A DNA stretch of 64,000 bases from Schmidtea polychroa (lineage: Eukaryota): positions 61,752,001 through 61,816,000 of the forward strand of contig CM097886.1 in NCBI GenBank assembly GCA_044892525.1, given 5' to 3'. Positions 11,201-64,000 of this stretch are shown here, in pieces. The notes under the pieces were generated by a model, which worked only from the letters and a program-made list of their open reading frames with translations, was not told the DNA's origin and made no database searches. Within the stretch, counting starts at the first letter, position 1. Every line of letters starts with the position of its first letter. A program made the position numbers and the translations under genes.

Positions 11201-14200
11201 AACAAGAAGAACAAGACTGTCAGTTGTGGCCTTTGCAAGCACAGATATAAAAACATTCAATACTCAAAAAGTTTCGGAATTTAGCGCCAAAACATAAGCC
11301 TGGCCACGGTGTTCACTCGGGTGAAAGGTAAATGGTAAATCAATCAATCACTGCTGCATGCTTATCAAGCAGAAAATTTAGCTTTGTCATTCAGCCACTG
11401 TTTTGGGTGTTTGTATTAGTTGTATATCCATATGGTCATTTTTAACCCGCGGTGTCATACTTTGTCCATCTCTGCATTGACTCGTTACAATTTATACTAT
11501 TAAGGTTTTATATGGTACAAATTTTAACACGTGTTACTGTTATATTTAATAAAAAATTAAATACCTACAATACTGATTGTTTTTTTTAAAAGAAACTCGA
11601 AAAAACAATCATCATCTTCCTCCACTTCAATTTTTAACAAAAAAACTAACCAAAACTAAACACAGTACAACTTATATACACCTTAATTGAATTCTTCAAT
11701 GCTAATTATACTTGCGTATAAGTCGAGAAATTTACGTCAAGTTTTCAAGTCAAAATAGCCACTTCGACTTATACGCGGGTCAAAAAACGTACAAATTAAT
11801 TTTAAATGAAATCATTAAACCTTTTTTTATTTTTGTTACTTCGACTTATACGCGGGTTTCCAATTTAGGACTTAAAAACCTCTTAAAATTTACTCGGCTT
11901 ATACGCGAGTATATATGGTACTATCTAGAATCATTGGAATTTTAAAGGCAAACACACATATAAACATATTTAACTGTGTATATAAGTTTGACCCTTAAAG
12001 ATTCACATTGATGGACACGTTGACGGACACTTGCATCCATAACCGTCCATAATGTAACATGACTGCAATAGTCGTTAAAAAGTGAAAAGGTTATTATGAC
12101 ACACAGAAATTACTTTATATTTATTTATATTTAACTAAAACTATATATTTCATGTAAATCTATAAAAACATAATTAATTACGAGGATGTCTTTAAACAAT
12201 GCTAATTTGAGTCATAATTGATTATTTACGTTCCTAAATTTTGGCTGTAATAGCCGTTATTGTCACATCACACAGCCTGTTGCGTTCGGCTGGCACAATT
12301 ACTGTTATACCCACAATCTTATTTAACAGATTAATCAGTTGAAACTAAGTTCAAAACATGAAGTGTCAATTTTTTTGACTGTACTCTTTGTGAGTGTCCG
12401 TCAACGTGTTTAATTTCTACATTGTGGATATATCCGACATAGGTATAGGGTAGTGATATTGTTTATGGCGAGGTTAAATATAAATATTATCTGTAAATTT
12501 AATTTTATCTGTGTAGTGAAACCGGTTGCGGTACAACTGTTATAGGAACGTGTGATTGTATTAGTTATAAGATTGTTAATTTTAGGCCGATTATATGAAA
12601 TCAACTTAGAAGAGCCAATTCGATATGGCAAAGGCGATCCGGTTGAGACATATTTATATAAGACGTTATGTATGAATTACAAGCAAGACCTTATAAACGT
12701 AATAGATGAATCTTTAACTCCCGACCAATGTCATTTGGTTGTTGTGAATAGAGATGTTTTGCTAGATAGTAACAAGGCATCAGAACAAATGCTCCAGAAA
12801 ATCATGTCGATTTATTCAGCATCTAATCATCAGAATTCACCAGATGATTTAAAACTCTTAGCTGATGATGAATGCTCAAGGATTATTTGCCTGACTAATT
12901 CTTCCATTGATTGTAAAAATCCGAATGTCCTTGTTATCATACAGATAAGTTATGAAGGAAATTCCATTCAAGATTTCATTAACGAATCAATCCGCAACAC
13001 TGGTAAAAGGCCACTAGTTGACATGCTATGTGATACTCTCACGGAAGAAGTAATTTATATTATCATTGTTAATATATTTTATTTTATTATTCAGTTTTTA
13101 GAATCAAATTTCAAACAGTTATCTGGTCTCCGAATCAACATGATTGCAACTGATCCAAATTATGTCAATCGAGGATTTGGAAGCAGAGCTTTGACTTTGT
13201 TGCTTGAATACGCAGCCAATATAAATTCCAGTGAACCAATGGATGAGAGTTCAGTTAGTTTAATTTATATACCTTTTTAACGTTATCACTACATTAAATT
13301 TGTTATAGTTTCTGAGTGGTTTCAAACATCTTTTTTTATACAAAGTGTATTAAGAAAATAAATAAAAGGAAAAATATTTTCATGACCTATATAACAAATA
13401 AATAGTTTTTTATTCGACACATTTATTTTTGAATATATGATACATATTGAATATATATTTGGGATATATTGGATATATAATAGTCTGAAAAATAATTAAA
13501 TTGATTAATATATTATTGAATTGATTATTAAATTAATAAGTCATTATTGTGGTAAAAAATGAAAAACTGTTAGGAAAATAAGATTATTAATATTAACAAT
13601 CAACAAATAACAAAACGAACTGTAATGTTCAGTAATTCAGAACTTCGGATTATTCGAACCTCTAAATAAAAGTCTTGAAAACTAAATTTCAGTATTTTAT
13701 CCTGTATGACATTTGGTTTAATTAAAAGGGTTTAAATATAGAAGTGGAAAAGTTTTTTTTTAATTTTTTAATACTTGTTAATTCGTTAATTTATTTTGAA
13801 AATCGAAATTTTTTGCGACCTATTTGACTAGTAAATATTTTTTATTCAATAAATTTATTTTAGAAATATATCTTTATACCAAATTTTAAATTAGAAAAAA
13901 CAACAGGCAATTAGATATATATTAATCTAAAAAAATTATTAACTTGATTAATAAATTATTGAATTGATTAATAAATTATTGAATTGATTATTAAATTAAT
14001 AAGTCATTATTGATATAAATTATAAAAACAACTACAGTCGAATCCGCTTAATATCACGGGGTCCGGCCGCTATATAAATGTGATATAAACCGAATGTGCT
14101 ATTAAGCGGATTGTACTGTATTTGGAAAATAAGATTATTAATATTAACAATCAACAAATAACAAAACGAACTTTAAAGTAGTTATTTTCAATCTTTGTCT

Positions 14201-32569: not shown

Positions 32570-35500
32570 TTTTGATTCAGCACCTAAATTTCTGTATCAA
32601 AAAAGTTCTTGTGAGATGGTTTCTATGCGTTTCTATATCAGATAACCCGATTAGGATATCGTCTATATAAGGGACAGCGAAAGGAAGGTCCATCAAGACT
32701 TGATTAATATATCTTGGAAAAGTCTGTGCAGAGTTCCGAAGCCCAAATGGCATATATACGTACTCCAAAATATCGATTGGAGTTAGTACGACTATTTTTT
32801 CAATATCAGACTCTCGTATGGGTATCTGATGGTACGCCTTAACGAGGTCGATTGTGGAGAAAATCTTTGCCTTTGAAAGACAGTGAAGGATGTCACTAAC
32901 AAGCGGCATGATATAGGAATCATGTACTGTGATAGCATTCAGGTTTCGATAGTCGCCAAAAAGACGGGAAATGACATCTATTTTTGGGAGCAGGTGCATT
33001 GGCGATGACTATGGAGATTTAGATCTCCGAATAGTACCGTCATGTAAGAGATTCATGAATTCGGAAAGTACAAACTCAAGTTTCTCATTAGAAAGTGGCC
33101 TTGTGTGGCTTCGGAACTTCGCTTACCGCAGTTTTTCGCGTGTTAAAACACTTATTAATGATATCTACGGCTATTTTTGGGTGTTAAATTGTTGTAACAG
33201 TTTTCGACGGAGTAGTATTTTGGCAGTTAATTTTTAGCAAGAGTGAATGTTTAAATCGGTTGGTTTCGTTGATGGCGGAGGAAATAGTACTGCAGTTTAA
33301 TGGATTATTTATCCTTAAAGTGCGTGAATGGCAATCAACGAGTAATCCATTAGCACATAAAAAAATATCAAATCCTAATATGGGGATAATAACCTCTGCT
33401 GTGTGGAACTTCTACTGAAATATTTGATCAGACAAAAATGGTAAAGAGAAAGAACCTAACGAACCTAACGCCCCACCGACACTACCGTTTGCAGCCTTCA
33501 AAGAAATATCCATAGTGTTGAGGTCCGGAAGGTACTCTTTAGGTAAGATCACAATCTGGACCCAGTGTCAACAACAAATTCTAGTTTGTTCGAAGGAGAT
33601 GACAATATATTAAAAGAGTGTGATTCAGCCTCTATTAAAAATAAATCCAATTTTGAAGAAAATTTGCCTCCCACCTCTGCCGCTAGAAGTGGTGGCAGTA
33701 TTAGTTTTTTTGATTATTTGGGTGTGTTTTGTGTAATTGGTGCAGCCTTCGAAGCATTTTAAGGCTTTGTCTCAAACCTATCGTTTGTTGGGGTTCAGTA
33801 GGTCCCGGGATAAAAGTATTAGGAAAATTTTCGAATTAAATAAAATAAATTATTATTAGTATTTAATAATTACTGAAAATAGAATTAAAATTACTAAGAT
33901 TGAAATTAAAATAAAAATAATAATTAAAAATTACTACATTTAGAAAACAAACAAAAATAGTATTTTATGTATATTTAGTAATTAAATAATTACTAAAAAT
34001 AAAATAGCTTAAGTTTAAAGTATTTTTTTTTTCAATCACAATAGACCTATAATTGGACCGACAATTTAGACACACATTTGACGTGTAAGATAGACTTAAA
34101 CAACAAATTCAGGATAAAGTGAAATTAGCTCGAGCAGGACACAAGATTATCACCACTACAGATATTGAAGATAACACTACGCTAAAATAACCAATTCGGG
34201 TTCTTAGCAGTTTAATATCGATTTTGTATCAATTCGTTGAGTCGGAATTAAAATTCAACCGGTACGTAACATTTTAATTATTTATAACTTACACCAGTAT
34301 TTGTTTCGTACTGTAGTGTTTGGGAAATAATATTTAGTTAAAACAATCATTAGGAAAAGTCTTCTCCGTTTCTGGGATTAAGACTAAACTTTTGGGAATT
34401 ACCCTCTTCTTGTTCTTGACACCTACATCGGGCTGTTGGCGCATTTAGAGCCAGCCTTGATTCTTATAAATAATATTTAAGGAGGTTTGTATAACCGTTT
34501 TCTATTCTGTAGCGTGCAGCCAGTTTTTCTAAATTGTATTTGAACAATTTTTGTAATATATTTAGTTTAAAATAAATATTTAAAAATATATTTTCTTTAT
34601 TTATATCTAAATTACCTACACGCGTTATAATTAATACTTGTGGAGTGAGATTTACAATTGTGTTAGTTCGAGTACCTACCCATCAAACCTAACACACTTG
34701 TCAAGTATCTGACAAGATGGTGCTTTGTCTCTCCAATTGCAACCTAGATGGCAGAACTGTGCGTTATTACGAAATTTACAATGAAAACGGTGCAGGTTCC
34801 TGGCTGAAGGAAAAAACGAACATTGGTGACTATTTTGCACTACTTGTTGTGATCTTTAAAAATAAGGCCTGTCGTCATTATTACGCCTGGCGGAGATGCT
34901 ATTCTCAAGCTCACTGATTCGGTTAGTGAGGCTTGTTATAGCGCAAAGTAAAGCTTCTTCCGTCGAAGGTTTCAAAGAAGACGAAGGAGAAGATAAAATT
35001 TCCGAATTTGTGCTGCTACTCAGCTGCATAGAGCCAGTTGGTTGTGGACCAAGTGTCACGACTTCATTAATCTTGTCGGCCATCTTTGCTAGCTCTACTA
35101 CATCTGCGGTTGAAGAAAGCGTTAAAATTTGTTGTGTGTGTGGCGGTAAAGCAGACAGAAAAATTTGTTTCAAAAGTTTTTGATCAGCAGCAACCTCAGG
35201 ATGTATTTGAGTCGGTTCTGCCATAGCGTGTTGCAAAAACTGTGAAGGTTTTCTCCTACTCAAAGTTTGCGTCTTAAAGTGTTTAGTAAAGAGGGCAGCT
35301 GTAGGCTCTTTAAAGACGACAAGGATTACCGTACGCAATTCTTCATAAGGGGTTTTGACGCTAGTAGGTGAAGTACGAAGAATCACCGACGAAAGCTTAC
35401 TTGATATAGTTGGGGAAATCAATGGTAAAATGCGACAATATTTGTCGCGCGAACTGGTGACCTCAATTCCCTCAAGTGCTAGTTCGGTAGCAATCAGCCA

Positions 35501-35700
35501 AGTAAGTGGAGAGTTATTCTCATCCAAAAAATACTAACATAAATAAGTCGAACACTGATTATTGGACTTGCGTTTAGTCCTTGTTGGGTTGTGATTGTTG
35601 TCAATGTCATTCTCCAAATCTCAGGAACCGCCAGAAAGTGGCAGCAAACAATGAATGACGCTGTATGGCGTCACTCCGTAGTCACCTAGTGTACGACTAT
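32570..35700 (-). mobile_element. Decayed Ty3/gypsy retrotransposon: gag (34856-35527), aspartic protease (about 33300-33580), RT (32577-32999); about 0.9 kb non-coding block between gag and protease
   Basis: Gag PYEELR...RRKPSQFL...IFLSALP; protease FVVDTGS...LKAANGS...ILGFD; RT IDLVKAYHQIP, MPFGLRNS, YIDDILI. Confidence 0.9.
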
Positions 35701-41444: not shown

Positions 41445-42091
41445 CACTCATACCTCGCTTTACGGCCTAGATACGTTGAAAAGTTGGCCGCAAAGCGAAA
41501 CACCGCATAACGAATCAAATATTTTGATATAATTCCATATAAATTCAATAGGATTGGTTCCAATTTTTTATAAAATAACGTAGTTTTTAGTTTAAAATGC
41601 ATTTTTTTCTTTTTATTTCATTTAAAAATGCTTACATATAAAATAAAAATAAATAACAAGTACATATTATATATAACAATAAACTGAAATAAAAAAAAAC
41701 AAAAACAAATTCATTAATAAAATCGAAATTAATAAATTGATACATAATAAAATACATAAATTAAAATTTTTAAAGACAGAGTTCTAATCTGAAGACGAAC
41801 ATGAAGAATCGGTAAGCTGCAATATAATGTCAATATCATTTTCCGCTGTTGTAGATTTAGATGATTTTTTAAGAAATTTATCCAACGTTGTTTGTCTTGC
41901 CTTGGTTCTTGCTTCTTTTTGCAGTTCTAAATAACAGTTAATCGCTGAGTTAATTTCGCACCTTTTTTTCACACTTTTTTTGGCCGTATAACGAAACATT
42001 TTAGGCCGTAAATCGAGAAAGTGCCGTAATTAAAGTAGGCCGTTATAGCGAAAAGCCGTATAAAGAGCAGCCGTATAGCGAGGTATGAGTG
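41445..42091 (-). mobile_element. 647 bp non-autonomous deletion derivative of the Tigger element at 1-1553
   Basis: TIR CACTCATACCTCGCT at both ends, TA on both sides; 41445-~41955 is the near-exact reverse complement of ~1040-1553; 41955-42091 is the 5' subterminal region with repeated GCCGT(A) motifs. Confidence 0.97.
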
Positions 42092-44332
42092 TACTGATTT
42101 TAGAAATTGTCAAATGAACTCTTAGTCTCGCCACCTTTCACGGTTCACCTGCAGACCACCGGTACGAGTACCGACTATCCTCCGACGACCATAATAGACG
42201 GTTCAACTCTCATTTAAATAATTATAATAATTGCAAATAATATGAAATATTAAATAAACAAAATCTTACCAGCGACCCTTTCCTTTGTCTCTACATATGA
42301 TTTTCACAATTTATTCGTCACTCTAGACATTGGTATATAATATTCAACCTATATTTCTCCCACAATATCTCTGGTCGGATCAATTTCACTATGGGTGCTG
42401 TTTACATGTTGTTCAAAATTTCCCAAAGGACTCAAATTTTATGAATACTATTCATCCTCGCCCTCTCAGTGGCTCTAGAAATCATATGCAGACGTCTAAA
42501 CGGTAACGTCGCTGGATCCGTGAAGAGAAAAAACCAAATAATGTGCATATTCATAATATTTTAGTTATAAACAGTACATATGGTATGAAATCGTTATAAA
42601 TGTAATAAAATAAAGGATACAATTTTACTTTTGTTCTAATTCTTCTGCTCGATTGAGTTCTCTGAAATTGAAGCTGTGAAAATATCTGTAGAATCGTTTT
42701 CGAAAATCGTGATATAGTGCTGAACGTTGTTGTAATAGGTCCCTTTCAAAAGTTTTTAGAAGTTTCTGTTTGGAGTATCCTGTGAAAAGTTTTTAGAAGT
42801 TTCTGTTAGGAATTCCCCGTTTAAGATTTGTTAGAAGTTTATTGCTTTCCTGGTTCGTACCTGTCAAAAGTTTATAGAAGTTGAGGGAATTAGCCAAGTG
42901 TTCCCTTATATAGAATTTTTCGTCCAATCAGGACTTAGCTTGTGTGTATCTTTAATATTTTCTTATTTTTTTTAGTTTTTTAAGTTTTTTTCATGCTATT
43001 TATTTGTTTTATTTTATTAATTTATCAAGTAATTTAATTTATATATTTTCTTTTATTTTTGTTAATTTTTATTGGTAATTTCTCTTGTAATTTGCTGTTT
43101 TGCTTTTCCTTTATTTTTTATTTATTGTTTTTATGTTAAATTTTATTTTCTTGTTCAATTTTTTAACTCCCTGTTGTTTTATTGTTATTAATTTCTTATG
43201 GTTGTGTGGTTTATTTGTTATTATTCGTGGTTTCCATACTATGCTTTTAGCTACTTTCTTAATCTCTTGTTTTCTCCTTTTATTATTTAATTTTCCCTCA
43301 CACTTGGCTGATTCGCTCAACTTTACTTAATACGGTATTTAATTTTTAATTAATTTATAAAAGAAGGATTTTTACGATTCACTACCTCTCCCAATTTTCA
43401 CAACTTCAATCTAACTTTCATAACTTCAATTCAACTTTCATAAGCCCAACAACTGTTAATTATTGCTGGTGTCCGCAAACAATTATTATCATAACTCATA
43501 CCTCATTGTAACTGCAATCTATGGTAAAGGGCATTGAAGCATCGATCCCAGACCTTTGTTCAGCCGATCGCAGTTTTAATTTGTTGTTTAGGGTACAAAC
43601 CGGTTTTAATTTAGAAAATATCGATTTTGCTTTTGATGTACGTATAGAATATTAAAAACGAAGCAATGTTCACGGTTGACAAATGACAATTTGACTGCAC
43701 TTTTATTTTATATCTATTGTTATACCTTTATAAGGCAAAGGCTGAAATTGGTTATTGCATCAATCAGTTGCTCTAAAATCCCTATTTCTAATACCTCCTA
43801 TAGAACCTTAACACGTCAACACTTTGTCAAGAACGGTCTTTGGTTAATTTATTGTTCTATCAGAGGGAAGATAAAATAATACTATGTGTACTATTGAAAT
43901 ACCCGCGATCACAACTAGTTGCCCATGATCTATATAACACCAAAAAACTATAAAAGCGAAATAATCAAACTTCTGAAAAAAAATATTTTAGTTCTATTTT
44001 CGCGTATTTAAGATTCTTTTATTAATGGACGTTATCATTTCATCCCTTGAGTAGCCGTCAATACTACAAAGAACGTAGCAAACCGAAATGCTTAATGAAC
44101 CGAGAGCCCTTCTATAAGTGGCCTAGTAAAATTCGAGGGGGTCAGTTGGAGAGAATTCATGGCAACGGAAATCAACTATCCACTCCATCCCCACCGCTAT
44201 ATAAATCCCAATCACGAGTTCATATAAGGTAAATTGTGTTGACATCTATTCCCCCCCCCCGCCCAGCTTACCAAAAAAATATCGAAATAAGCCCAATTAA
44301 AACAGAACACAACGAGAACAAAAGATAACATC

Positions 44333-45971
44333 TCATTCCATATTTACATCATTCGAGAGAAAGCTGGAAATTGCCGTTTGTACAGATTCCCTGATAAAGG
44401 CGAAATATGAGGACATTGCAGTGAATCCTTCCTTCAAAAGCTGCTCCCCTGTAGTTCCTATCAATCATTAATATTAATCACATAGCAATAAATATGCCTA
44501 CCATCAGAATAGCGTAACAACACCTCAATACCCGACTCAACCCTGTGATAGGAACAAGTGGCCTTCCCACCAAACCTGAATGATTGCATCAAGCAGAATT
44601 AATCAACAACACGAATCCTTACAAATAATTCACCAAATACGACAGAGAAACACCTAAAGTATCCGTTTCTCCGTGAAATCGATAGAACGGCGATCCGTTT
44701 CCTACATTCAGATCTTTCTCGATGAAGCAAATTTTACCGCAAACCTTTTTCGCATATGATTTGTAATCGACCTTGCGATTGGTATTTTTCACTTGCTCCG
44801 TTTGCTGTTCCATATATTCAAGGTTGCCTTGGTAGAATCGGCACTTTTCAATCATTGCACTCAACGCACTGACTAGAATGTGCGCTGCTGGTTGATGCTT
44901 TGGTCGATCTGATTCCACCAGCCAAATGAAAACATTTTCATCCAATCCAATTTCAACTTTGCCTCTCAGTTCTTCATATTCATAAAAATTTTTATTCGTT
45001 CTTTCAATGAGCCTTGTATCAGCAACTCTGGCGACTCCTTTCTCAATCTAATTACAAATGATTATCAAAACTGAATTCATATAATATTTTATTGTTACAA
45101 GAACATTTATTAAATAATAATTATAAATGATTATTATACCTTAATTACACCTTCTGGGAATAAACTCTGTAATGTTAGAGCGCTTTTTCCAGTAATTGGA
45201 GATAATAACTTGAGAGTGGGAGCTCTGCGACCATGTGCTGCACTGACCGGAATGAATTTTGCATGATCATGCCCGTAATTCTTCACTGCCATAGCAACAA
45301 TAAATATTTCCTCACCTGGCATCAATCTATCTAATACAACGTCTTCAGTTAATTTGACATCGCAAAATTTCAATTTCTGATCTCCTATTGGACGCCATAT
45401 TAAATGATCACTAAAATTTAACTTTATATTGAAACTTGCAAATTAGTATAATTTACCTGTATACTGTACGATCTCGACGTTCTTTATAAGTCTCCAAAAA
45501 TTTCTCTACTACATTCTTATTAAGAGGATCTATAAATTTATGAAATCGACTGGTATCAATACTTTTCAGTTTATTGTAATTAACATCTAAATCAAATATC
45601 AAACAAGCGTTTGAATCAAATCCTGATTTGTCATCAGCAGGTAATTCTGATGAATAAAATTCTAACAAATCTGGATTAACATCAACTGGAGTAAGACCTA
45701 TACGTAGTTGCAAATCAGAATCATCAATACAACTTGTATTATTGTATAAATAAATTCGATCAATTGCAACTGATGGTACCTCATTGATAATTAGCCTTCT
45801 CAGAGTACAATGAAAATCACTAGGTAAATTGTGAATCTCAAATCTAAGTTTTTCGTTTTCATAACTTAGAATATTTATATTAAAATTTTCTTTTAGACTA
45901 TTTAAACTGCCCACACAATGTTTTGAAGGCTTATATTGGTTGCAGTGTTCCTCAATAATATATTTAGACAT
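44333..45971 (-). CDS. POLR1C-POLR1D: RNA polymerase I/III AC40-AC19 (RPAC1-RPAC2 / POLR1C-POLR1D) fusion, predicted 469 aa; exons 45971-45457, 45410-45140, 45047-44623, 44575-44502, 44457-44333
   Basis: AC40 motifs LRRLIINEVP, YNNTS, RIGLTPV, GHDHAKF, VFIWLVES...ALSAMIEKCRF (340 aa). Same frame continues MEQQ...YRFHGETDTLGVSLSYLV (AC19 pattern FVLHEEDHTLGNSLRYMI) and, through two more GT-AG introns (47 and 44 nt), an amphipathic helix ending at TGA (129 aa). Exon lengths 515+271+425+74+125 = 1410 nt. Confidence 0.88.
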
Positions 45972-46399
45972 AAATTTTAACTAATATTAAATAATTAATA
46001 TTTTTTTTTAATTGCAATATTAAAACAACATATAATTCATTTTCATGAAGAGGGTTTAAATTTATTTATGAATTTCTAAAATATCAGTTATTTCTATTTA
46101 TCATTTGGAAATGTTTTTATGTCATAGATTTTCTTCATAAATTGAGACTTCGAACAGATCAAAATGACGTGCATGATTTTAATTATTAAATTTTTTGAAA
46201 TAATGACAAATTTTCAATCAATAAGAAATATAATATAATATTTTATATTAAAATTAAAATAAAAAATCTTAAAATTTAATTTAAATTTATAATTAGAAAG
46301 AATTAAATGAAATTAGATGACAAAAATTGTGATAATGAATCGTAATTGAAATAGGTTTGATTAAAAATATTAAAAAATGTTAAATTTAAACTTGTAAGT

Positions 46400-48408: not shown

Positions 48409-49572
48409 GTATATATATTTGAGCTTTTATCTTGATTTGTGTTCTGAATTGACAGAAGTGAAAGCATGCCTTCTCAGTTGGATTTATTTTAATATGATTT
48501 TTTCTAAGACCTAATTCAGTTTGATTTACTTATTCTTTGTGTTTATTTGGCATTCTTTTTTATTTACTAATTTTAGTCGATTTTTCTCTTTACTTTCACT
48601 TGGTGTGTCTCATCATCGAAATTTCCCTTTGTCCGGACACCTTTGGGTAATCATCATTTTTTTTTGATAATTTTTTTGATTAGCCCGATTCAATATATAT
48701 CGTTTGTAACTGCTTGTGTTTTTTATTTTATTCAATGTATATTTATATTTCGATTAATTGATTTTGTTGATTAAATATGTTTTATTTAGTGTTTTCTCAT
48801 TTTTTGAATTGACTGCTTGTGGTTTTCATGATTTTCAGCTGGGTCTCGACACATTTTTTACGCCATGGGTTTTTTTATTTCGTTTGTTTTAATCAATTTA
48901 TTTAATTTCATTATCTAATGATTAGATTCGAATCTATTTCGACCAAGCCCAAAATTACTTTAATTTCTGAGATTATTGCTCTTACTGCACAATTCTTATT
49001 GTATATTATTCGTAGTTTTATAATAGTGTTATTAATTATAGTCAAATTATACGTTCAATTTACATTGTTTAAATTTCGACCTCTCCTTTGCAAGGCCATC
49101 CCATGTCTTGAGGCCCGGCAGGTGGAAAATAGTTTAGTGAAGAAATATTAATTTTCCAATCTTTATTACGTTCATTATGGTTTAAACTTACTACTTATTA
49201 ATTAAATAGGTAGCACTTGTATGTATATTATACATTTATGTACTTAAATAAATATTACAAAAAATACCTCATAGTATTAGAGTTAGCAATATCATAATAA
49301 CTTGGCTAATATTAAAGTATTTTCTTTGATCTATAAAACAAATAAGGGGCTTATGGTCTTTTTAATTTATGAAAAAAAATCTTCGTGCTTTCTTTCAATG
49401 GATATCATCATTTATTAATCTGTGAAATCTATTTACAAATAAAGTAATTTGTCTGTTTGTTCTTCCCATATAAATGTTTCCGGTGTTCAGCAATTAAAAC
49501 AAAGTATTTGCTCTTTACAAGTATTTATAGCGGACTGATCAAATGTTTGATAATTTAATGTTACATTTAAAA

Positions 49573-50259
49573 ATGATTAAATACATTTTCATTTTGTTAT
49601 ATTTTCTGTTGGGAATAAAATCTGTGAGAAGGGAAATTGTTGATAAGCTTAATGATATTAAATATGCAATTAGTTCTGACCCAAGACAACTCGATAGAGC
49701 TCTGTCTGACCTTGTAGAAGTTGGGCCTGAGTTATACGAAGCTTGTTCAAAACTTAAAGTTGGAAAGTCAAAGATTCCTATTCTTGTAGACATAAACGAG
49801 TTTTTGGTAAATTTAAATAAAAAATTACCGATAATTACAAATTCGGATTTGAAAAAGCTTCCATCATATATTGAAAGAGATTTTATGGTAGAAGAGGGGC
49901 TATTATTAAATAAGGTTAAAATAATTTTTGAAGAATTTCAATCAACAGCTAAAGACGGAAGTTGGGAAATTTTCAATCGAAATTATGGAAAAGCTTACAA
50001 AATGTCTGCTTTATCTATATTGCAATTTTTAATGATAGACAGTTTGTCAATTGTAAAAAAGTTGACGAATTGCAACAAAGAAATTATGGGAATTCACTGT
50101 GCTAGATCTATTCTTCGAATTGATCAAGGTTTACTGATTGAAGGATGCTCTCTTGGATATAATAAAATGTCAAGTCTCGCTCCACGGATAATTGAAAACT
50201 GGAAAATTAGATTAGGGAAACTATTACTATTCTGTAAAAAACAAATATCAGAATGTTGA
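49573..50259 (+). CDS. Intronless hypothetical protein (228 aa) with predicted signal peptide
   Basis: Long clean ORF in AT-rich DNA; N-terminus MIKYIFILLYFLLGIKS has a basic n-region and hydrophobic h-region; no family recognised. Confidence 0.65.
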   Translation: MIKYIFILLYFLLGIKSVRREIVDKLNDIKYAISSDPRQLDRALSDLVEVGPELYEACSKLKVGKSKIPILVDINEFLVNLNKKLPIITNSDLKKLPSYIERDFMVEEGLLLNKVKIIFEEFQSTAKDGSWEIFNRNYGKAYKMSALSILQFLMIDSLSIVKKLTNCNKEIMGIHCARSILRIDQGLLIEGCSLGYNKMSSLAPRIIENWKIRLGKLLLFCKKQISEC

Positions 50260-53760: not shown

Positions 53761-54048
53761 TACATTAAATTTTTAATAAAATAAAATAATAAATAACATT
53801 TAAAAAATTTATTAATGTCATCATCAAAGCCGACTACCCATGACTCTTCGTTTTCACTCAATTTCTCTTCTTGTTAGTGTGCGCACACAGACGCGAGAAG
53901 TAGATTTTTCTATTTTTTATATTGTGGTTTATATTAATTGGTAGATTTAGAATTGATTTTAATTCTGGTAATTTGGGTTTGGTTCGAGGAATTTTTGTTT
54001 GAACGGGTTATTTATGTGAATTTTTTGAATTTTCGGCTTTATTTAAAT

Positions 54049-54546
54049 ATGGAAAATGAAAATGTTATTAAATCATCTGGTGAATATTATGACACTTCTA
54101 TTAGACCAAGTATCGACAGAATGATTGCTGCAAAAGATAGTGCTATAAATGATGCTGGAACCTCGTTTAAATTTACCAGTCAAACCATAGATTTTTGGTC
54201 AAATGCCACTAGTGGTTTTGTTCGTCGTTTCATGTCAAGGAATAATAAAGCAGAATATGGAACTGCCGAAAAGAAGGAATATGATATTCTATTTAATCGA
54301 GCTCTTAAAAGGATAATCACATCTCAAATGTTTACTAGCAAAAGTGTTGAACAATTATCTAATGTTTTGAATTCAATAGACGATCAATCAGTGACCAAAA
54401 TCAAAGAATGGTTGCAACAATATTATGATGACTTCACAGATGAAATGATAACAGTTGTGTTTTCTAATGTTAATAAAGAATACCAGTTTCTTAGTCGTAA
54501 TGTTTTCTGGAAACAATTATTATTATTATTATTATTAATATTTTAA
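54049..54546 (+). CDS. Hypothetical 165 aa protein at the edge of the Polinton; host or element origin unclear
   Basis: Clean ATG-initiated ORF, helical composition; C-terminus runs into a TTA microsatellite, so the true end is uncertain. Confidence 0.55.
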   Translation: MENENVIKSSGEYYDTSIRPSIDRMIAAKDSAINDAGTSFKFTSQTIDFWSNATSGFVRRFMSRNNKAEYGTAEKKEYDILFNRALKRIITSQMFTSKSVEQLSNVLNSIDDQSVTKIKEWLQQYYDDFTDEMITVVFSNVNKEYQFLSRNVFWKQLLLLLLLIF

Positions 54547-55583: not shown

Positions 55584-58096
55584 TTAAAAATATAAAGTAA
55601 CATATAATCTAAACATATAATCTAACAAATTATTACAGTTATGCTGACTCCAAATTAGTTGAGCCTCAGCGTACTGATCTTCTGTAACATCAGACCAAAT
55701 AGGAGGTAATTCTAAAGTCGATTCAAGAACATCCAAAGAAGTAGCGAAATCATATGGAAAGATACCTTTAGAGTGAATCATCTACCCTTGAAAGACAGAC
55801 GAAGTTAACGGAAAAGTAGTAAGTGTTTTCACAGCTTTTGCTAAAGAACAATTAACAAATTGCATGCTGTCAATAAAACGAACAGGCAATTTGTTAATAT
55901 ATGCAATTAAAGATATAAATTTTTCTGTAGAGGTAGGTATAATATTAAGTTCCCAAAGGTGAAAATCACTGAGACCATGTTTTAAAATATGGTGGAGGTC
56001 ATAGCCTCGTAAATTATGAAAGACTACAGGTAACAACTTATTAATCCTGCGAGAGACATTGCATTTCCTACATGCCGCTCCGACATATCTACCTGTAAAA
56101 TGGCAATGATCTCTCACAGGATTAATAATAGATTTTTTACACAAGTAACAAATAGTGGTAGATCGAAAGGCACGCTCCTGAGCAAAAGACAAAGTAGACA
56201 TACCTTTACGACCTTCAAGTTCATAATATGGCAGGACAATTGTGACAGCAATTTCCTCCACTTTCCTCAAAAAATCCAAAATACAATTAGGTCCAAAAAA
56301 ATAATAATAAAATTTAGTGTTTGTATAATTATTAATTAATAAAAGACCTGCTGATATGGGTAAATGTATTTGATGATATGTTTCATGTTCTGGTAAAACC
56401 GATTCAAAATCGGCATAAATTACGAAGGGAGGTGTAACGGTTTTTGCGTAATCTGTGAATAATAAATCCTTATTTTTAGGAAGTGTATACAAGGTTGTGC
56501 CAGTCTGATTTTTACAGCATAGAGCAACATGCTGATCGAAAGCATTCTTATATCTAAAGCCATTTAAACAATGTGGGCACCAGTTACACCTTATTTGAAC
56601 GTTAACATTTTCATTTAAATGACAATTCATTAATTTGTCCAAGTCTGTCACGGCCGTATAATGATATTTATCTTTATTACTCAAAAGTAATAAATAAATT
56701 GGCCTACCATCTATAACCTTGGAGCGATGTACAATATTAAGATGAGGGTGGTGAGCTACATAATCCTCAGAAATATCACAATCAGAACTGGCTGGATTAT
56801 AAGACAGAACGTTTATGCTTAAATTTAAATCTGGATTTTTCCTTTCAAATTTGGGGATGTTACATAGCCTCATCGGGCAATCTGTGTTTTCATCATAATT
56901 TAATAGATGTAAATATTCTATATATTTGGCGGCTCTTTGATGATTACGACCTATTTCTTCTCTTTTTAAAAGTGCAAGAATGCTATACAAGAAACACTTA
57001 TGGTCGTTGTTTTTAACATTAATTATTGCGTGTTTTAATTTTAATGCAGATGGGGTTTTTATATAACTATGTCCGGATAATCTACTAACGGGTGCGTATT
57101 TCGTTAAAATAAAATCTATCTCTAAAATATTCATTACTCGCCACCCGCTTCCTAAATAAGTGAATTGCTCAATCTTTTTTTATTTAATTTGCTCACCCCC
57201 TCGTTTATAAAGTTTGATGTAAAAACTTGCGCATTGTTAGAAAAATAATTATCCCGGATCTCCCCATCTTTTTCAAATTTAATTAAAATTGTAAATTGAA
57301 TTTTTACATTGCCCATCTTTTCTATTTCCTCTATTAATCTTTCTTCAATTTTTGATGTTAGGGCTATTTTTACTAAGTTTTGATTTCTTATGTCAAACTT
57401 TTAATGTTTTTCGTGATCCGTTCAAATCGGATTCTACCATAGGTTCAAACAAAGAGCCGCCTATTTGACATATGTTGAAAGACGTTGAAGCTACACATTC
57501 ATCATTGATGACTATCACTTCTTGTTGTGTAGAGGGTGCTTGTTGTGTAAAGGGTGCTTGCTGTGTGAACGATGTTGAAGCTTCACATTCATCTTTGCTG
57601 ATGACTATCACTTCAGGTCGCGATAATTTATTAGGAATATAATTTTTAATTAAACCAGCAGGTCTTTTAATAGAATCTTTTTTAATAATAATAGGATCTT
57701 TTTTAATAATAATAGGATCTTTTTTAATAATAATAGTATCTTTTTTAATAGTATCTGTTTTTTCTTTCATAATATTTTTTTTAATATTTTTTTTAATATT
57801 TTTTAAATCTTTTTTAATAATATTTTTTTGTAAATTTTTTTCTAAATTTTTTTTTAATTTTTTTTTATTTTTATTTATTTTTTTAAATAAAACAATTTTT
57901 GAAATCGAAAATTGCCCTAAGTGACTATGATGTTTATTAAAAAATGTCATATATTTTATTTTTTCGCTAGTCACGCATTTGGGGCATATTAAAAAGTTGA
58001 CTGAATTAAACTTTTTTCGGTAATATTTTCTCATTGTATCATGACATTTGTCGTTATGGCCAATTGAGGATTGGCAATAATTTGGGTATAGTCTAC
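55584..58096 (-). pseudogene. Protein-primed family B DNA polymerase, disrupted and 3'-truncated
   Basis: GSGW...GHSYIKTP..AIINVKNNDHKCF, IYADFES, endonuclease-VII-like CYLC..VRDHCHFTGRYVGAAC..CN, VVFHNLRGYDLH, RFIDS, KGIFPYD. In-frame TAG at 55782-55784, frameshifts near 57180 and 57340-57400; polymerase motifs absent after about 55600. Confidence 0.9.
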
Positions 58097-58154
58097 CTGT
58101 TAAATAATAAAATTAAAGTTTTATTCTTTTCTATATTGAAAACTAATTGTTACA

Positions 58155-58228
58155 TCTATAAGGATTTATCATCATTTGTTATTTAATTCAAATGAACTTT
58201 ATAACAAATGATGATAAATCCTTATAGA
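58155..58228. other. Perfect 28 bp inverted repeat with 18 nt loop
   Basis: TCTATAAGGATTTATCATCATTTGTTAT (58155-58182) is the exact reverse complement of 58201-58228. Confidence 0.95.
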
Positions 58229-58329
58229 AAATAGGTTAATATATTCGAGAGAATATTAGAGAGATTTTAGTAGATAGGTCAGATTATTATTATTATTATT
58301 ATATGAATATGTTAAATATTAGAGAGACT

Positions 58330-58554
58330 ATAGTAGCTACATGCTCACTGTAGACTACAGTAAATGGGTCAGATTATATTATTATTTATATTATTATCAT
58401 TATTATTTATATTATTATTATTAAAGACAAGTAGCTGCATGCTCACTGCAGACTACTATATAGCTACATGCTTACTGTAGACTATATTATTATTTATATT
58501 AAAGAGAAGTAGCTGCATGCTCACTGCAGACTACTATGTAGCTACATGCTTACT
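58330..58554. repeat. Minisatellite of TAGCT(A/G)CATGCT(C/T)ACTG(T/C)AGACTA units abutting a gap
   Basis: About five copies (last partial), irregularly spaced by AT-rich linkers. Confidence 0.85.
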
Positions 58555-59321
58555 NNNNNNNNNNNNNNNNNNNNNNNNNNNNNNNNNNNNNNNNNNNNNN
58601 NNNNNNNNNNNNNNNNNNNNNNNNNNNNNNNNNNNNNNNNNNNNNNNNNNNNNNNNNNNNNNNNNNNNNNNNNNNNNNNNNNNNNNTGCAAACTACAAGG
58701 ATTTTATAACTATAATTTCGTAATAACTTTTTTAAATATTTTCATAATAATTTCAAAAACGTAGTATTTACTTCATATAATCATTTTCATCATAAATCAT
58801 AAATCATTTTCTTCATAATTTTCGTCATAAGTTTCATCATAATTTTGGTCATAAATCATTTTCATTTTCTTCATAAATTTTCGTCATTATTTCATAATAA
58901 ATCATTTTCATCATAATTTCATAATAAATCATTTTCATCATAATTTTGGTCATAAATCATAAAGCATTTTCATCATAATTTTGGTCATAATTTCATAATA
59001 AATCATTTTCATCATAATTTCATAATAAATCATTTTCATCATAATTTTGGTCATAAATCATAAATCATTTTCATCATAAATTTTCTTCATATTTTCATCA
59101 TAATCATTTTCTTCATAAATCATTTTTTCATCATAATTTTTTTTTTGGCATATTTTCATCAAAAAATCATTTTCTTCAAGAGTTTCATTATAATTTTTAT
59201 CCAAATATTTAAAAAATTTTTATCAAAATGTTTTTATGAAAATATTTAAAAAAGTTATTACGAAATTTTAAATATATGTAAAAAAAAATATATATATATA
59301 TAAAAAATAAATAATTCTTAC

Positions 59322-60075
59322 ATTGGGATTCCATGTCGGAATCATCCTCAGACAGGATATTACCAATTTCATCATCATCTTCAGAGAGGGCATTGATATT
59401 ATTACCAATTTCATCATCATCATCATCTTCAGAGATGACATTGACATTATTACCAATTTCATCTTCAGAGAGGACATTGACATTATTATTATTAATTTCA
59501 TCATCAGAGAGGACATTGACATTATTATTATTATTTTCAGAGAGGGCATTGACATTATTATTATTAATTTCATCTGCATCAATGTCAACATTGAAAACTG
59601 GGGCAATTGAAACATTTCCTAAAATGAAAAAAAAAATTAATTTAATAAAAATTAAAATTATAAATTTACCAAAGATCTTATTAGGAGCATCAGTTTGCCC
59701 AAGAAAGACGACATCATCGTCGCTATTTTCATTATCATTTTCTGTAATGAAAAAATTAATTTAATAACAATTAAAATTATAAATTTACCAAAGATCTTAT
59801 TAGGAGCATCAGTTTGCCCAAGAAAGACGACATCATCGTCGTCGCTATTTAAAACCTTTTCTAAAATGCAAAAATTAATTTAATAAAAATAAAAATTATA
59901 AATTTACCAAAGATATTTTCCACATTTAAAATCGAATCGTCTTCGGTAACCTCATACCAGTCGAATGGTTCTAAAAGAATAAAATAAAATATAATAAAAT
60001 AGAATAAAATAAATTACCATTCGTCAAAAGACTTCTCAAAACGCGATTGTTAATAGGTAAATTGTTATTTTGCAT
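59322..60075 (-). CDS. Spliced acidic low-complexity ORF inside the Polinton (exons 60075-60018, 59970-59908, 59860-59789, 59741-59670, 59618-59322; 3' end unresolved)
   Basis: Four GT-AG phase-1 introns (47, 47, 47, 51 nt) join 187 stop-free codons: MQNNNLPINNRVLRSLLTN-EPFDWYEV...-SDDDDVVFLGQTDAPNKIF x2 -...(NNVNVLSEDDEIG)n; a further GTAAG donor at 59321. Confidence 0.72.
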
Positions 60076-60638
60076 TTTAGTTAGTTAAAGTGATTTTTGA
60101 AAAATTTAGAAAAATTGTGACAAATTTTAGATTTGTCAATGTTTATAAAGAGAATGAATATTTTCCTGTCCCAGCATATGAGAATATAGACACACACACA
60201 TATACACTGAATATTTTACTCTCTCAACCAATACACGCATGCATGTATGTAATGTAAATCACTCAGAATTACATGTGACTGCCTTTGTTAGTCATGCCTT
60301 TGTTAACTTGCACTGTGCATGCTTCAGGCATAGGTAGTCTTTATGTTACAAATAATAATANNNNNNNNNNNNNNNNNNNNNNNNNNNNNNNNNNNNNNNN
60401 NNNNNNNNNNNNNNNNNNNNNNNNNNNNNNNNNNNNNNNNNNNNNNNNNNNNNNNNNNNNNNNNNNNNNNNNNNNNNNNNNNNNNNNNNNNNNNNNNNNN
60501 NNNNNNNNNNNNNNNNNNNNNNNNNNNNNNNNNNNNNNNNNNNNNNNNNNNNNNNNNNNNNNNNNNNNNNNNNNNNNNNNNNAACAACAAAGGAAAGGAT
60601 ACATTTATTAAACATCAAATTTTATTAAACATTTTTCT

Positions 60639-61024
60639 TTAAACATCAATTTTTTTGTACAATAACCAAGCTAAACAATGTTGACCACATGTTTGGGTCA
60701 AGGGATTTTGAAACATAGTTTTATTATACACAATAGGTTTCCCCATTGTTTGTAGTTTTGATATCAACAAAGCTGGGTAATAAAAACCCATAGGATCGAA
60801 CACGAATATATTACCAGGTTTCACATATATAGCTATCCAATGTTCTCCACCAAGATGAGACGATTGAGTATTGACGATTATTGCTTGATTATTGCTCAAA
60901 TATGGAATTTTATCAAGAGGAAAAACTCCAACAAATTCATTTCCCAATATCTGTTTTCCGATTTTATTGACCTGAACAGAACTACTTAAATAAATCCAGA
61001 GTATAAAAAAACAACTTACTCCAT
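60639..61024 (-). CDS. Adenain-like cysteine protease, 116 aa, with a predicted 35 nt intron (61019-60985)
   Basis: GVFPLD, IVNT..GGEHW, VFDPMG, QNPLTQTCGQHC. No in-frame ATG in the main exon; ATG GA|GTAAGT...TTTAAG|T AGT restores an MDSSVQ start. Confidence 0.85.
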
Positions 61025-61051
61025 GATAACTTTTTGTGTTTCAATATACAT

Positions 61052-62272
61052 TTATACCAACACAGTTCTATTTGCAGTAATTTGAACTTCATTTTCAAAT
61101 ACTCCATATATTATAACATGTACTGGTTCAGTAATAGCTTTTGCAAACTTTATATCCAGTCGTAAATTTCCATTTTGAGGTAATTGACTTTGATTTAAAT
61201 CAAAATCAGGGGCTAAAACAAATGTAAAAAATGGGTATTTGCTTTTAAAATCTTCTAGAGTTATTCCGCAATTCAAATTTTTATCTAAATAACCCAGATT
61301 TCTAACAATACTCTGCATATATGTCGCACAGAAATTGTCATTCTCGAAATCTTGAATATATGTTTCTCGATAATCAGTATTTTTCGACAAAGTCAATGAA
61401 GTAACATTAAAGTTTTTGAAAATTGAGCTGGACGCAGTATATGATCCATTATATTGTGTTTCACTTTGAAATGTTATCAGAATAAAATTAGGCATTCTTC
61501 TGTCACCAAATATTTGTTCTTTATAGAATGATGAAGCACCTTTAGCAATAGCAAATTGTACAATTTCCTTTGTTTTTAATGGATAAATTGCATGTTTTGA
61601 ATTAAGACCCAATTGATGACCTGCTAATACTGAGGGGTCTACTCGTACTCTTCTCACCAATAATTTAGCATCAACTAATTGACATATTGGTGTAGTAGTT
61701 GCACTAGTAAGAGATAATGCAGAATCAGACCTTTTCAGTCTAATATGTACATTAACTCCCGGTAGTAAATATTTCGGTTGATCCATAAAATCAAGTTTTA
61801 ATGATGAGCACATGGTGAAAACCTTTGAGCCTTTTACCCACTTTTTTCTTTCATCATCATTGCCATAACCCATAGGAGTAAGACATGTATTTTTAGTATC
61901 GGAATTGTAATTTAAAATAGTTTCTATTAATGCCTTGTGAATGAATGTATTATTTCCGCCCTCAATCTTGATATTATTAAATCCTAACACTGCATCTTTA
62001 AAAAGAGTATGAAACAGGAAATTGTTCGGTATTACATCTGCATTGGCATCCAAAACGTTTCTATCTTTATCTACAACCTTAATCTGAACAGTCAATAAAG
62101 TATCGTTCAAATCTAAATATTCGGTTTGCGAACCATTAATATAAAACTCGATATCATTTCTACTATCGGTAATTGAATTCATAGGAAAAACTTCCTCAAA
62201 TGCCCCAAATTCTATTACAGCCTGGGGCGATGGTCTATCAAATATACATAATTCAGATTTACCACAAATCAT
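61052..62272 (-). CDS. Polinton major capsid protein (double jelly-roll, hexon-like), 406 aa, intact ORF
   Basis: CGKSELCIF..P...IE...EEVFP...IEFYI.G....YLDLNDTLL N-terminus and GNLRLDIKFAKAI...IIYGVFEN C-terminus typical of Polinton MCP. Confidence 0.92.
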   Translation of the reverse strand: MICGKSELCIFDRPSPQAVIEFGAFEEVFPMNSITDSRNDIEFYINGSQTEYLDLNDTLLTVQIKVVDKDRNVLDANADVIPNNFLFHTLFKDAVLGFNNIKIEGGNNTFIHKALIETILNYNSDTKNTCLTPMGYGNDDERKKWVKGSKVFTMCSSLKLDFMDQPKYLLPGVNVHIRLKRSDSALSLTSATTTPICQLVDAKLLVRRVRVDPSVLAGHQLGLNSKHAIYPLKTKEIVQFAIAKGASSFYKEQIFGDRRMPNFILITFQSETQYNGSYTASSSIFKNFNVTSLTLSKNTDYRETYIQDFENDNFCATYMQSIVRNLGYLDKNLNCGITLEDFKSKYPFFTFVLAPDFDLNQSQLPQNGNLRLDIKFAKAITEPVHVIIYGVFENEVQITANRTVLV

Positions 62273-62643
62273 TTTGCAAATATAGTTCCATGACCTTTCA
62301 TTCGTTTGTTTATACGTGATATTCCATGTCTTTTACGTTTTGGAGCATGAGCTGGAGCTGGAGCTGGAGGTTTTTCTTTTTGAAACATACCTGCAACCCC
62401 TGGTAAAACTTTCCCTAATTCTGCTAAAGCATTTGTTTTTAGAGATGGTAATATTTTCTGTTCATTCATAATAACATCTTTTGCAGTTTTCATACCAAAA
62501 CTACCAATACGTTTAAGAATAGGCAGGGCAAATCTACCAATTGTTCTCAACCATCCTGATCCGTACTGTTTACCAATAAAATATGGTAAATCACCACCAG
62601 ATTGGCTACCGCTATACATACTAATAATATCAGAATTAGCCAT
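62269..62643 (-). CDS. Small Gly-rich, basic-tailed virion core-like protein, 124 aa
   Basis: QSGG and QYGSGW motifs resembling adenain cleavage sites, amphipathic segment WLRTIGRFALPILKRIG, basic C-terminus; sits between minor and major capsid genes. Confidence 0.7.
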   Translation of the reverse strand: MANSDIISMYSGSQSGGDLPYFIGKQYGSGWLRTIGRFALPILKRIGSFGMKTAKDVIMNEQKILPSLKTNALAELGKVLPGVAGMFQKEKPPAPAPAHAPKRKRHGISRINKRMKGHGTIFAK

Positions 62644-63702
62644 TTATTTTACGAAAATGTAATGTCAAATGAGTTTTTGAACCTTTTGGAAATTCGATTA
62701 ATTGACCAGAATCATCTCTTATATTTATTTCTATATTGTTTATACAAGATGTTGAAACAGGTAGATACATGGGATTTTCTACATTGATTTGTACAACTTC
62801 ATCTTGATCATGTTTTTCAATCCATATAGATTTCATTAAAGGAACACTAGAATCACCAACAATAACTGGTTCCACGATATTACTGTAAATGAACATTTGC
62901 TGATGATGTTTAAGGATTTTCGGGTTGTTGTTCCTTCACAAATTTGTTCATTTTGTGTACATACTGGTTTAGTCAATCCTAATGTTTTTGTCAAATTTGA
63001 GTCAAATTTAACTTGACTAAGATTAGAATTTATACTAAATCTAAATACTTTATCTTTTTGAAGCTCGAAAACTGTTAAAATATCGCTACAATTATCACCT
63101 AAATAAGATTGTAATTGTTCGAGGTCTGTAATATATAAATTATCTTTAAAAGTATATGCATGCTCTGTTATTTCAATGTATGATAGCTTAAATTTGAATT
63201 TAACTAAATTATTAGTTTTTGGAAGTGTAGAGAGATTTATTTTGACTGTATCATTAAATACATTACGTAAATCAGTAAATCCAAGACGTTTAACATCAGC
63301 CACTGTAGAAAATAAAATTTCGAAAGGCTTATTCAAACAATTCATGTATAAATATTGACCATCATCATAAATTATAGGTTTCCTTGATTTCGATGAACTC
63401 GTCAAGTTATAACTATCTTTATCAATAAGAACACTAATATATTCCGTTACTGCTACTTTCTTATTATATTCAATAACTGATTTGCTATAGATTGGGAATA
63501 AATTGTATACAAATGTAAAATCCAACAGAGCAACTTCCCAGTCATTATCCAAATAGATAGGGTTTTGGAGTTCGATGATGAATTTGCTTGCTTGATTTTC
63601 TGGATGAATTAATGGACAACTATTGCTCGGCAAAATAGTATAAAAATTCACTTTACTAGTTCTTTTGCTGATATCCATGACGGGTTTTGATAACCATGCC
63701 AT
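62636..63702 (-). pseudogene. Minor capsid (penton-like) protein split by one frameshift near 62910
   Basis: FYTILPSNS..NQASKFIIEL..WEVAL (N-part) and IYSNIVEPVIVGDSSVPL..YLPV..IEINIRDDSG..LTLHF (C-part) in different frames. Confidence 0.85.
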
Positions 63703-64000
63703 TTGACATAGTATTGTTTATCCTTACCGACCTTTTTAGTTTTCAATATTTTTTGAATTCTAAATACTTTTGGGGGAGGAATGACTTGTAATTCCTGCTC
63801 ATAAAATTTCAATTGTACAATATTATTATCATTGTCTTTGATGACATACATTACAGGATTCTGTTTAGTATTTATTTTTGAAATTACAAAGACTTCATCA
63901 CTCCAATTTGTATCAAAATTTTTAATAAATGGTGATGCACTAATTTTACTAATTCTAACATGGTCACCGACTTTATATTTAGGTTTTGCAATTTTTACAG
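63648..64000 (-). CDS. C-terminal end of retroviral-type integrase with chromodomain-like tail (partial)
   Basis: KYKVGDHVRISK...NWSDEVFVI...KFYEQELQ...KILK...YYVKWHGY..SWI, typical of Polinton integrases. Confidence 0.88.
   Translation of the reverse strand, partial: VKIAKPKYKVGDHVRISKISASPFIKNFDTNWSDEVFVISKINTKQNPVMYVIKDNDNNIVQLKFYEQELQVIPPPKVFRIQKILKTKKVGKDKQYYVKWHGYQNPSWISAKELVK

Follow-up and report, generated by a model that had tools for sequence, protein, structure and literature searches.

The dimerization of AC40 and AC19 (RPAC1/RPAC2, POLR1C/POLR1D) is treated as the first, possibly rate-limiting, step in the assembly of RNA polymerase (Pol) I and of Pol III, and mutations at the AC40/AC19 interface cause Treacher Collins syndrome and leukodystrophy. 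Alpha-like heterodimers form first, are then joined by Rpb10 and Rpb12, and later by the second-largest and largest subunits, as described in the assembly portion of a July 2026 review (PMC13374769). POLR1C and POLR1D stabilize each other, according to a section of PMC11339298. Single-chain versions of such dimers are described for viruses. The African swine fever virus (ASFV) RPB3-11 fusion keeps the Pol II domain orientation, as stated in part of the text of PMC10881513, and the main text of the July 2026 review uses "single polypeptide" once, for vaccinia, while the words "fusion," "fused," "flatworm," and "Platyhelminth" are absent from it. A cellular AC40/AC19 fusion goes unmentioned in the portions covered of PMC9438803, PMC10881513, PMC2919709, PMC11339298, and PMC7204028, and the four supplement files of PMC9438803 hold no flatworm names. 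A literature search, with most subscription papers and many genome-paper supplements outside its coverage, returned viral fusions only and no paper on a cellular one.

The window analyzed here, a 64,000-nucleotide stretch of the Schmidtea polychroa genome, carries a minus-strand gene in which AC40 and AC19 are joined in one open frame. The spliced model has five exons and four GT-AG introns and codes for 469 amino acids (calculated mass 53.7 kDa), with the stop ending at 44333. Exon 1 (45457–45971, aa 1–171) covers the AC40 N-terminal part with the first alpha-motif and the start of the insert domain. Intron 1 (45411–45456, 46 nt, phase 2) separates it from exon 2 (45140–45410, aa 172–262), which is AC40 including the HAKF motif, and intron 2 (45048–45139, 92 nt, phase 0) leads to exon 3 (44623–45047, aa 263–403). 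The fusion point lies inside exon 3, where the end of AC40, a linker, and the first half of AC19 share one open frame; a stop codon is absent over the stretch that joins the AC40 C-terminal helix to HGETDTLG. The linker (about aa 341–361, 44751–44813) starts at a non-conserved methionine, Met341, at 44813; 14 of its 21 residues are identical in P0001, a relative described below. By a transitive reading of alignments to human RPAC2, the start of the AC19 alpha-motif (G388–Y399) falls at 44637–44672. The gene is completed by intron 3 (44576–44622, 47 nt, phase 2), exon 4 (44502–44575, aa 404–428), which codes for AC19 strands and a shortened and altered His-Pro loop, intron 4 (44458–44501, 44 nt, phase 1), and exon 5 (44333–44457, aa 429–469 and the stop), which codes for the AC19 C-terminal dimerization helix, with G439 in the place of RPAC2 G99. 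Re-splicing reproduced the coordinates and counts that had been predicted originally, including the 469-aa length, the split of 340 + 129 aa, the four frame-restoring introns, and the methionine at 44813. We consider this to be, with a probability of roughly 85%, the organism's one functional gene for the Pol I/III alpha-like platform, predicted to be made as one 54-kDa chain.

Elsewhere in the window, exons of NAT10, an RNA cytidine acetyltransferase (PF05127, PF13718), occupy 9488–13280 (+). A DDE_1 transposase ORF (PF03184) is located at 105–1211 (+), with a second piece at 41784–42029 (−) that has nearly the same C-terminal residues, and a retroelement with a reverse transcriptase fragment (PF00078) and a gag-like ORF (weak DUF7041) is located at 32577–35533 (−). 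A Polinton/Maverick-like element at 55782–63717 (−) includes a polymerase B-like ORF (PF03175, weak), an adenain-type protease (PF00770), and two ORFs of 426 and 293 aa that have no Pfam match and may code for capsid proteins. Open frames of 242 and 202 codons at 49531–50259 (+) and 53938–54546 (+), also with no Pfam match, are possibly exons of a neighboring gene.

Twelve sequencing runs were listed, none recorded as RNA, and contigs from four were compared; for three of these the RNA type is a guess. All four introns are spliced out at the modeled sites in contigs of all three RNA-guess runs, which come from two studies. Run X1 has a single 1,418-nt contig from 45972 to 44326, and runs X2 and X3 (one sample, second study) have contigs of 970 and 983 nt. 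These contigs span the AC40/AC19 junction and the four splice sites, both of which the original prediction had marked for checking along with the codons near 44816. Five differences from the genome were listed (T345M, N33S, S25T, and two silent changes), none of them a stop. No stop occurs near 44816 in any run, including X6 (type unrecorded, possibly the assembly's own sample), whose unspliced contigs cross 44000–46220 with no differing letters near 44813–44820.

Contigs are not molecules and by themselves are no proof of a single transcript, so an independent second line of evidence matters. This is an intronless retrocopy (G000:C1:201.83 Mb, L012:2159–3792) that matches the spliced model at 92%–95% identity, crosses each of the four junctions, and extends from just ahead of the start codon to just past the stop. 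Stops and frameshifts interrupt it, as does an insertion of 244 nt, and a poly(A) tail is not seen. We read it as a processed pseudogene and as a record of one mRNA with both halves. The insertion has short inverted repeats at its edges and an apparent 8-bp target duplication, and resembles a hAT-type MITE. RNA-type contigs differ from the window gene by 0–2 letters per exon, fewer than the up to 8–9 per 140 that separate the retrocopy from it, and therefore derive from the fusion gene itself. Values of pN/pS between gene and retrocopy are 0.54 for the AC40 half and 0.45 for the AC19 half, on changes too few to weigh. The open frame, the spliced contigs, the retrocopy, and the AC19-family C terminus described below bear out the prediction of AC40 and AC19 as one polypeptide, and the fusion is confirmed in S. 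polychroa.

Searches with exon 1 found one longer relative among 363 candidates, an unnamed gene model (P0001). It is 84% identical to the fusion protein over aa 1–397, has an unrelated tail past residue 399, and reads through the AC40/AC19 junction with neither a stop nor a methionine. P0001 matches solved RPAC1 chains with E values of 6e-40 to 1e-29 (yeast RPAC1, 5.7e-40), compared to 3e-7 or weaker for Rpo3/RPB3 chains (RPB3, about 4e-7). A tunicate AC40 query matches window exons 1 and 2 at 36%–41% identity. PF01193 (RNA_pol_L) scores, from scans of pieces and the relative rather than the spliced product, were 17.1 bits for exon 1 alone and 23.6 bits for P0001, with a cut-off of 24. By the comparisons with RPAC1 chains and tunicate AC40, the N-terminal part is AC40/RPAC1, with RPB3 and Rpo3 more distant in sequence. 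A lineage-specific insertion in the AC40 insert domain at aa 135–165 (about 45480–45570, −) is common to P0001 and is predicted to form a helix (pLDDT about 60–67); relative to the AC40 of the two-chain heterodimer, the AC40 of the fusion has about 15–20 extra residues, predicted to be helical.

Nucleocytoviricota Rpb3/11 fusion clusters were the three best Atlas feature matches for the fluke protein (0.91), and 12 of 106 metagenome stretches were confirmed as distant, uninterrupted fusions of 22%–38% identity, which are probably viral. All 12 of these loci are intronless, and together with the Atlas result they could be taken to mean that the gene was acquired from a giant virus. The N-terminal part nevertheless groups with AC40s of eukaryotes, to which it is much closer than to any viral match, and the gene has four host-type introns; viral transfer is rejected on the AC40-type sequence and the introns. 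The assembled sequence is borne out by contigs of DNA and RNA type and by the retrocopy, and this excludes an artefact of assembly or gene modeling. The combined probability of a viral or artefactual origin is negligible.

The C-terminal part is, as judged by alignment, a very divergent AC19/RPAC2 domain of the Rpb11/AC19 family. The last 129 residues (aa 341–469) score 35.4 bits against a profile of six neodermatan fusion C termini, compared to 9.7 bits for the best of 1,000 shuffles, and the C-terminal domains behind that profile pass PF13656 at 73–80 bits. PF13656 itself had no match on the three exon pieces over which the domain is split, on P0001, or at the locus in the genome search, and the Atlas had no usable match for aa 341–404. 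The HMM hit anticipated for this domain was thus obtained with an Rpb11-family profile and not with Pfam on exon pieces. One Rpb11 exon from the same genome reaches 29.6 bits on the neodermatan profile, about as high as the 31–35 bits of the whole fusion domain; the assignment to AC19 is therefore based on collinear orthology and diagnostic residues. The whole 469-aa product aligns collinearly with neodermatan fusions (aa 1–461) at 30%–32% identity (E values of 1e-55 to 1e-60), and aa 362–469 score 75–100 against five neodermatan AC19 domains, compared to 49 against Rpb11 of the same genome. A fluke C-terminal domain has E values of 7e-16 to 1e-12 with RPAC2 chains, and of 9e-7 or weaker with RPB11. 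Neodermatan domains favor RPAC2 by 6–9 orders of E value, and in the S. polychroa domain SL.Y agrees with RPAC2, as does the last helix's Gly. The initial preference for AC40/AC19 (Pol I/III type) over Rpb3/Rpb11 is upheld by the RPAC1 E values and these AC19 domain scores.

In the AC19 alpha-motif, equivalents of human RPAC2 E47, T50, L51, G52, L55, and Y57 are kept, and those of D48, H49, N53, and R56 are changed. The canonical EDHTLGN and GY...HP are replaced by ETDTLGV and CSYHRVE, with loss of the DH and HP pairs, and the alpha-motif Tyr and the loop His lie two residues closer together. Eight RPAC2 positions linked to Treacher Collins syndrome sit at intra-subunit and RPAC1 contacts, according to part of the text of PMC9438803; six of the eight are identical in the fusion (E47, T50, L51, G52, L55, and G99), with Val at L82 and Ser at R56. 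Conservation to P0001 is 30 of 36 residues for the AC19 part that it covers and 290 of 340 for AC40, so the covered AC19 part is as conserved as AC40. From sequence, the lost motifs make a canonical AC19 less probable, and not a domain that works like AC19.

The genome searched comprises 781 Mb in 1,012 contigs. Queries with tunicate AC40 (7 matches) and a monogenean fusion (9 matches) returned only the fusion gene, the broken retrocopy, two Rpb3 genes, and Rpb11, so that no intact AC40 gene was found besides the fusion gene. The matches inspected include one RPC1 and one RPA1, the largest subunits of Pol III and Pol I, so an AC40/AC19 platform is needed. A free AC19 was not found, which is distinct from absent, in weak, exon-by-exon searches with PF13656, P0011, P0153, and exon 3. 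The PF13656 search listed Rpb11 and one match with an E value of 6.7 that contains stops. Another match, with an E value of 4.7 (C4:81.3 Mb, L065), was rejected as a free AC19 and attributed to chance: it has no TLG motif, scores 6.1 bits on the profile, and has no Pfam match. A P0156 query had zero genome matches, missed the fusion gene itself, and is uninformative. PF01000 and PF01193 listed the two Rpb3 genes and also missed the fusion gene, indicating that Pfam family searches are insensitive in this genome.

The two Rpb3 genes are diverged (L010 and L011, G000:C3:136.88 and 140.77 Mb), and the one Rpb11 found (L001, C4:58.25 Mb) is canonical. The Pol II largest subunit has six matches with open frames of 1,787–1,928 codons (L037–L042; G000:C1:68.04 Mb, C1:206.93–207.05 Mb, and C2:186.20 Mb). 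Four of these are clustered in alternating orientation, and the three that were inspected all end in heptad-like repeats. The six matches represent either an unusual Rpb1 expansion or, in part, assembly duplication; the two Rpb3 genes and the Rpb1 copies hint at specialized Pol II forms.

If the C-terminal domain of the fusion were a decaying passenger, AC40 could have as its true partner Rpb11 or a free AC19 encoded at another locus. The alpha-motif His and Arg and the Pro of the His-Pro loop are lost, PF13656 is blind to the domain, and searches that proceed exon by exon are insensitive in an intron-rich genome, all of which fit such decay. We consider it improbable, because exons 4 and 5 are intact in frame and splicing and are expressed in the RNA-guess contigs, the domain, where covered, matches P0001 as closely as AC40 does, dimer-interface residues are kept, and no AC19 candidate was listed other than the motif-less match with an E value of 4.7. 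A working AC19 half remains the preferred reading.

The Cichlidogyrus casuarinus fusion (P0011) was folded with AlphaFold using a 47-row alignment. The model has a pTM of 0.87 and a mean pLDDT of 91, with the linker (about residues 321–337) at pLDDT 78. Residues 6–324 superpose on RPAC1 chains (Z 27–28, rmsd 2.2–3.1, about 300 aligned), and residues 26–438 superpose on ASFV RPB3-11 chains (Z 23.0–23.5, rmsd 3.5–3.7, 307–310 aligned). Likeness to solved structures aids predictions of this kind, and the model is a sign of feasibility and not proof. In the P0001 model, the AC40 part is mostly at pLDDT 85–98, and the AC19 part, of which only the first third is present, is at about 50, with a low-confidence start of the AC19 strand-strand-helix order. 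This low confidence is explained by the rest of the domain missing from that gene model. The orthologue models make it feasible that a single chain forms the AC40/AC19 pseudo-dimer.

One gene could also give two products, either through cleavage of the linker or through an internal start that yields free AC19. Met341 lies directly past the AC40 helix, the parts on either side of it have the usual sizes, and the RNA contigs have an additional Met at 345. In P0001, P0015, P0152, P0097, and P0176, however, the stretch that leads from the helix to the first hairpin of AC19 lacks a Met, the linker sequence is unconserved between lineages and thus offers no common cleavage signal, and a linker of about 17 residues suffices in the Cichlidogyrus model. 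Two products are improbable, and a single chain is favored.

A HMMER search of representatives returned 861 proteins at an E value of 0.001; 150 were listed, and 20 of them match only the unrelated tail of P0001. An AC19-like domain is present behind AC40 in 5 of the about 130 AC40-like proteins listed (P0001, P0011, P0015, P0022, and P0097). The four named carriers among these are all flatworms: Cichlidogyrus casuarinus, Calicophoron daubneyi, Paragonimus skrjabini (a model without a middle part), and Protopolystoma xenopodis (a partial model). With a fluke AC19 domain as query among proteins of 266–847 aa, the fusion was identified in 5 of 19 candidates, all flukes, and Fasciola hepatica, Opisthorchis felineus, and a full Clonorchis model came in through cluster look-ups. 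The fused architecture is thus found in records of nine neodermatan (fluke and monogenean) species; schistosome and tapeworm records, which were among the matches of no search, are outside this count. The records are named RPAC1, RPA-type domain protein, hypothetical, or unnamed, and never as a fusion (for example, KAL3317501.1 from Cichlidogyrus casuarinus, CAL8086527.1 from Calicophoron daubneyi, TPP64632.1 from Fasciola gigantica, and GAA27694.1 from Clonorchis sinensis). The condition set originally, that many annotated fusions would remove the novelty, applies in part: the architecture stands in these records, and no paper found describes it. A partial Dicrocoelium model, one of six shorter-protein candidates for the fluke AC19 domain, was rejected as a free AC19; it starts inside a linker-like region. 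Two gene models (P0072, and P0157 from Nippostrongylus brasiliensis) join a family-2 glycosyltransferase-like part to AC40 and are probably merged neighboring genes.

The fusion is ancient, shared with flukes and monogeneans, and neither local nor recent. The original prediction held that two adjacent genes had lost the DNA between them, a picture in which Met341 would be the former start of AC19. A recent local fusion is rejected by the same architecture in nine neodermatan species. Met341 as a relic start is rejected as well: the 84%-identical P0001 lacks a Met where the halves join, and the Met residues of neodermatan linkers fall at positions that do not align with Met341. In Macrostomum lignano, two AC40 models of 321 and 322 aa, both flagged partial and without a start Met, are unfused, have no AC19 domain, and end 10 residues past the KC motif; unfused AC40s end 10–17 residues past this motif. 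All fusions have a short hairpin (VCGK, VCGR, or LNGR) 24–25 residues ahead of the alpha-motif, and the distance from KC in AC40 to GE in AC19 is 58 residues in S. polychroa and 53–76 in other fusions. In an AC40-only tree of 67 of 135 rows, seven fusion rows fall on one side of a branch without Macrostomum (SH 96). In a second AC40-only tree of 24 chosen rows without partial models, the fusion branch has an ultrafast bootstrap of 90 and SH-aLRT of 95, support that is below the tool's bar; both trees are unrooted. The branch to the S. polychroa gene and P0001 is very long (1.5 and 2.4 changes per site), and long-branch attraction may possibly be behind the grouping of the fusions.

One origin, in the common ancestor of the S. 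polychroa lineage and Neodermata after the Macrostomum split, is the better reading and one that we hold with good confidence. Very fast evolution in the S. polychroa lineage would have followed, most visibly in the AC19 half. The same mechanism with a different history, in which the S. polychroa and neodermatan fusions arose independently, is rather unlikely. Linkers are unalignable and differ in length (53–76 residues from KC to GE), the grouping is on a long branch with a bootstrap of 90, and viruses reached the same design separately; against this, the domain order and the short hairpin ahead of the alpha-motif are the same, and no fusion is present in the other 125 of about 130 listed AC40-like representatives, which makes fusion a rare event.

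With a single chain as the preferred product, we propose that it folds in cis into the usual AC40/AC19 pseudo-dimer, with the AC40 C-terminal helix leading through a linker of about 20 residues to the first AC19 strands. The tether would turn the first assembly step from intermolecular to intramolecular, with 1:1 stoichiometry by construction and no orphan subunits, and the platform would then bind Rpb10/Rpb12 and the second-largest subunit as usual. More speculatively, the tether may prevent mispairing of the halves with products of the duplicated Rpb3 genes, and it may have let AC19 motifs erode. A fuller reading is of an undescribed cellular single-chain platform with one origin and value as a rare clade marker, in which the tether relaxed selection on AC19 and otherwise near-invariant motif residues (His49, Arg56, and the His-Pro loop) were dropped while Pol I and III still run; we put this at slightly below even odds. 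One of the dropped residues, R56, is a human Treacher Collins position.

If the single-chain reading is true, this natural animal fusion implies that free AC19 and AC40 pools and separate dosage are dispensable. It would provide a ready tethered-dimer design to separate AC19 residues needed for dimerization from those for large-subunit binding, a binary character for flatworm phylogeny, and an explanation of why AC19 would be scored missing in genomes that carry the fusion. How transcription works is left unchanged, and the design is known from viruses.

Compared to the AC40/AC19 heterodimer, the fusion keeps both domains, the alpha-motif, the C-terminal helices, and most disease-linked RPAC2 interface residues, but it is one gene and one chain instead of two, and its AC19 half has diverged much further than the AC19 of flukes or humans. 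Bacterial alpha-2 and archaeal Rpo3/Rpo11 have the same assembly role and dimerization fold in separate chains, as described in part of the July 2026 review (PMC13374769). Neodermatan fused RPAC1, which carries PF01193 and PF13656, has the same fused architecture, and the S. polychroa gene is orthologous to it by collinear alignment and tree. Overall identity is about 31%, and the neodermatan AC19 keeps EDHTLG and FCGY..PHP, which are largely lost in S. polychroa. ASFV vRPB3-11 (H359L), vaccinia Rpo35, and Nucleocytoviricota Rpb3/11 have the same order of a large and then a small alpha-like domain in one chain, and the likeness to viral Rpb3-11 fusions that was drawn at the outset is matched by the predicted structure of the Cichlidogyrus orthologue, which superposes on ASFV RPB3-11 across both halves. 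The viral fusions are described as Pol II-like and are 345–380 aa in length, whereas the flatworm fusion is nuclear, intron-bearing, of Pol I/III type, and 440–490 aa, from which we infer an independent origin. The flatworm gene is a new, cellular variant of a design so far described, in the papers found, only for viruses.
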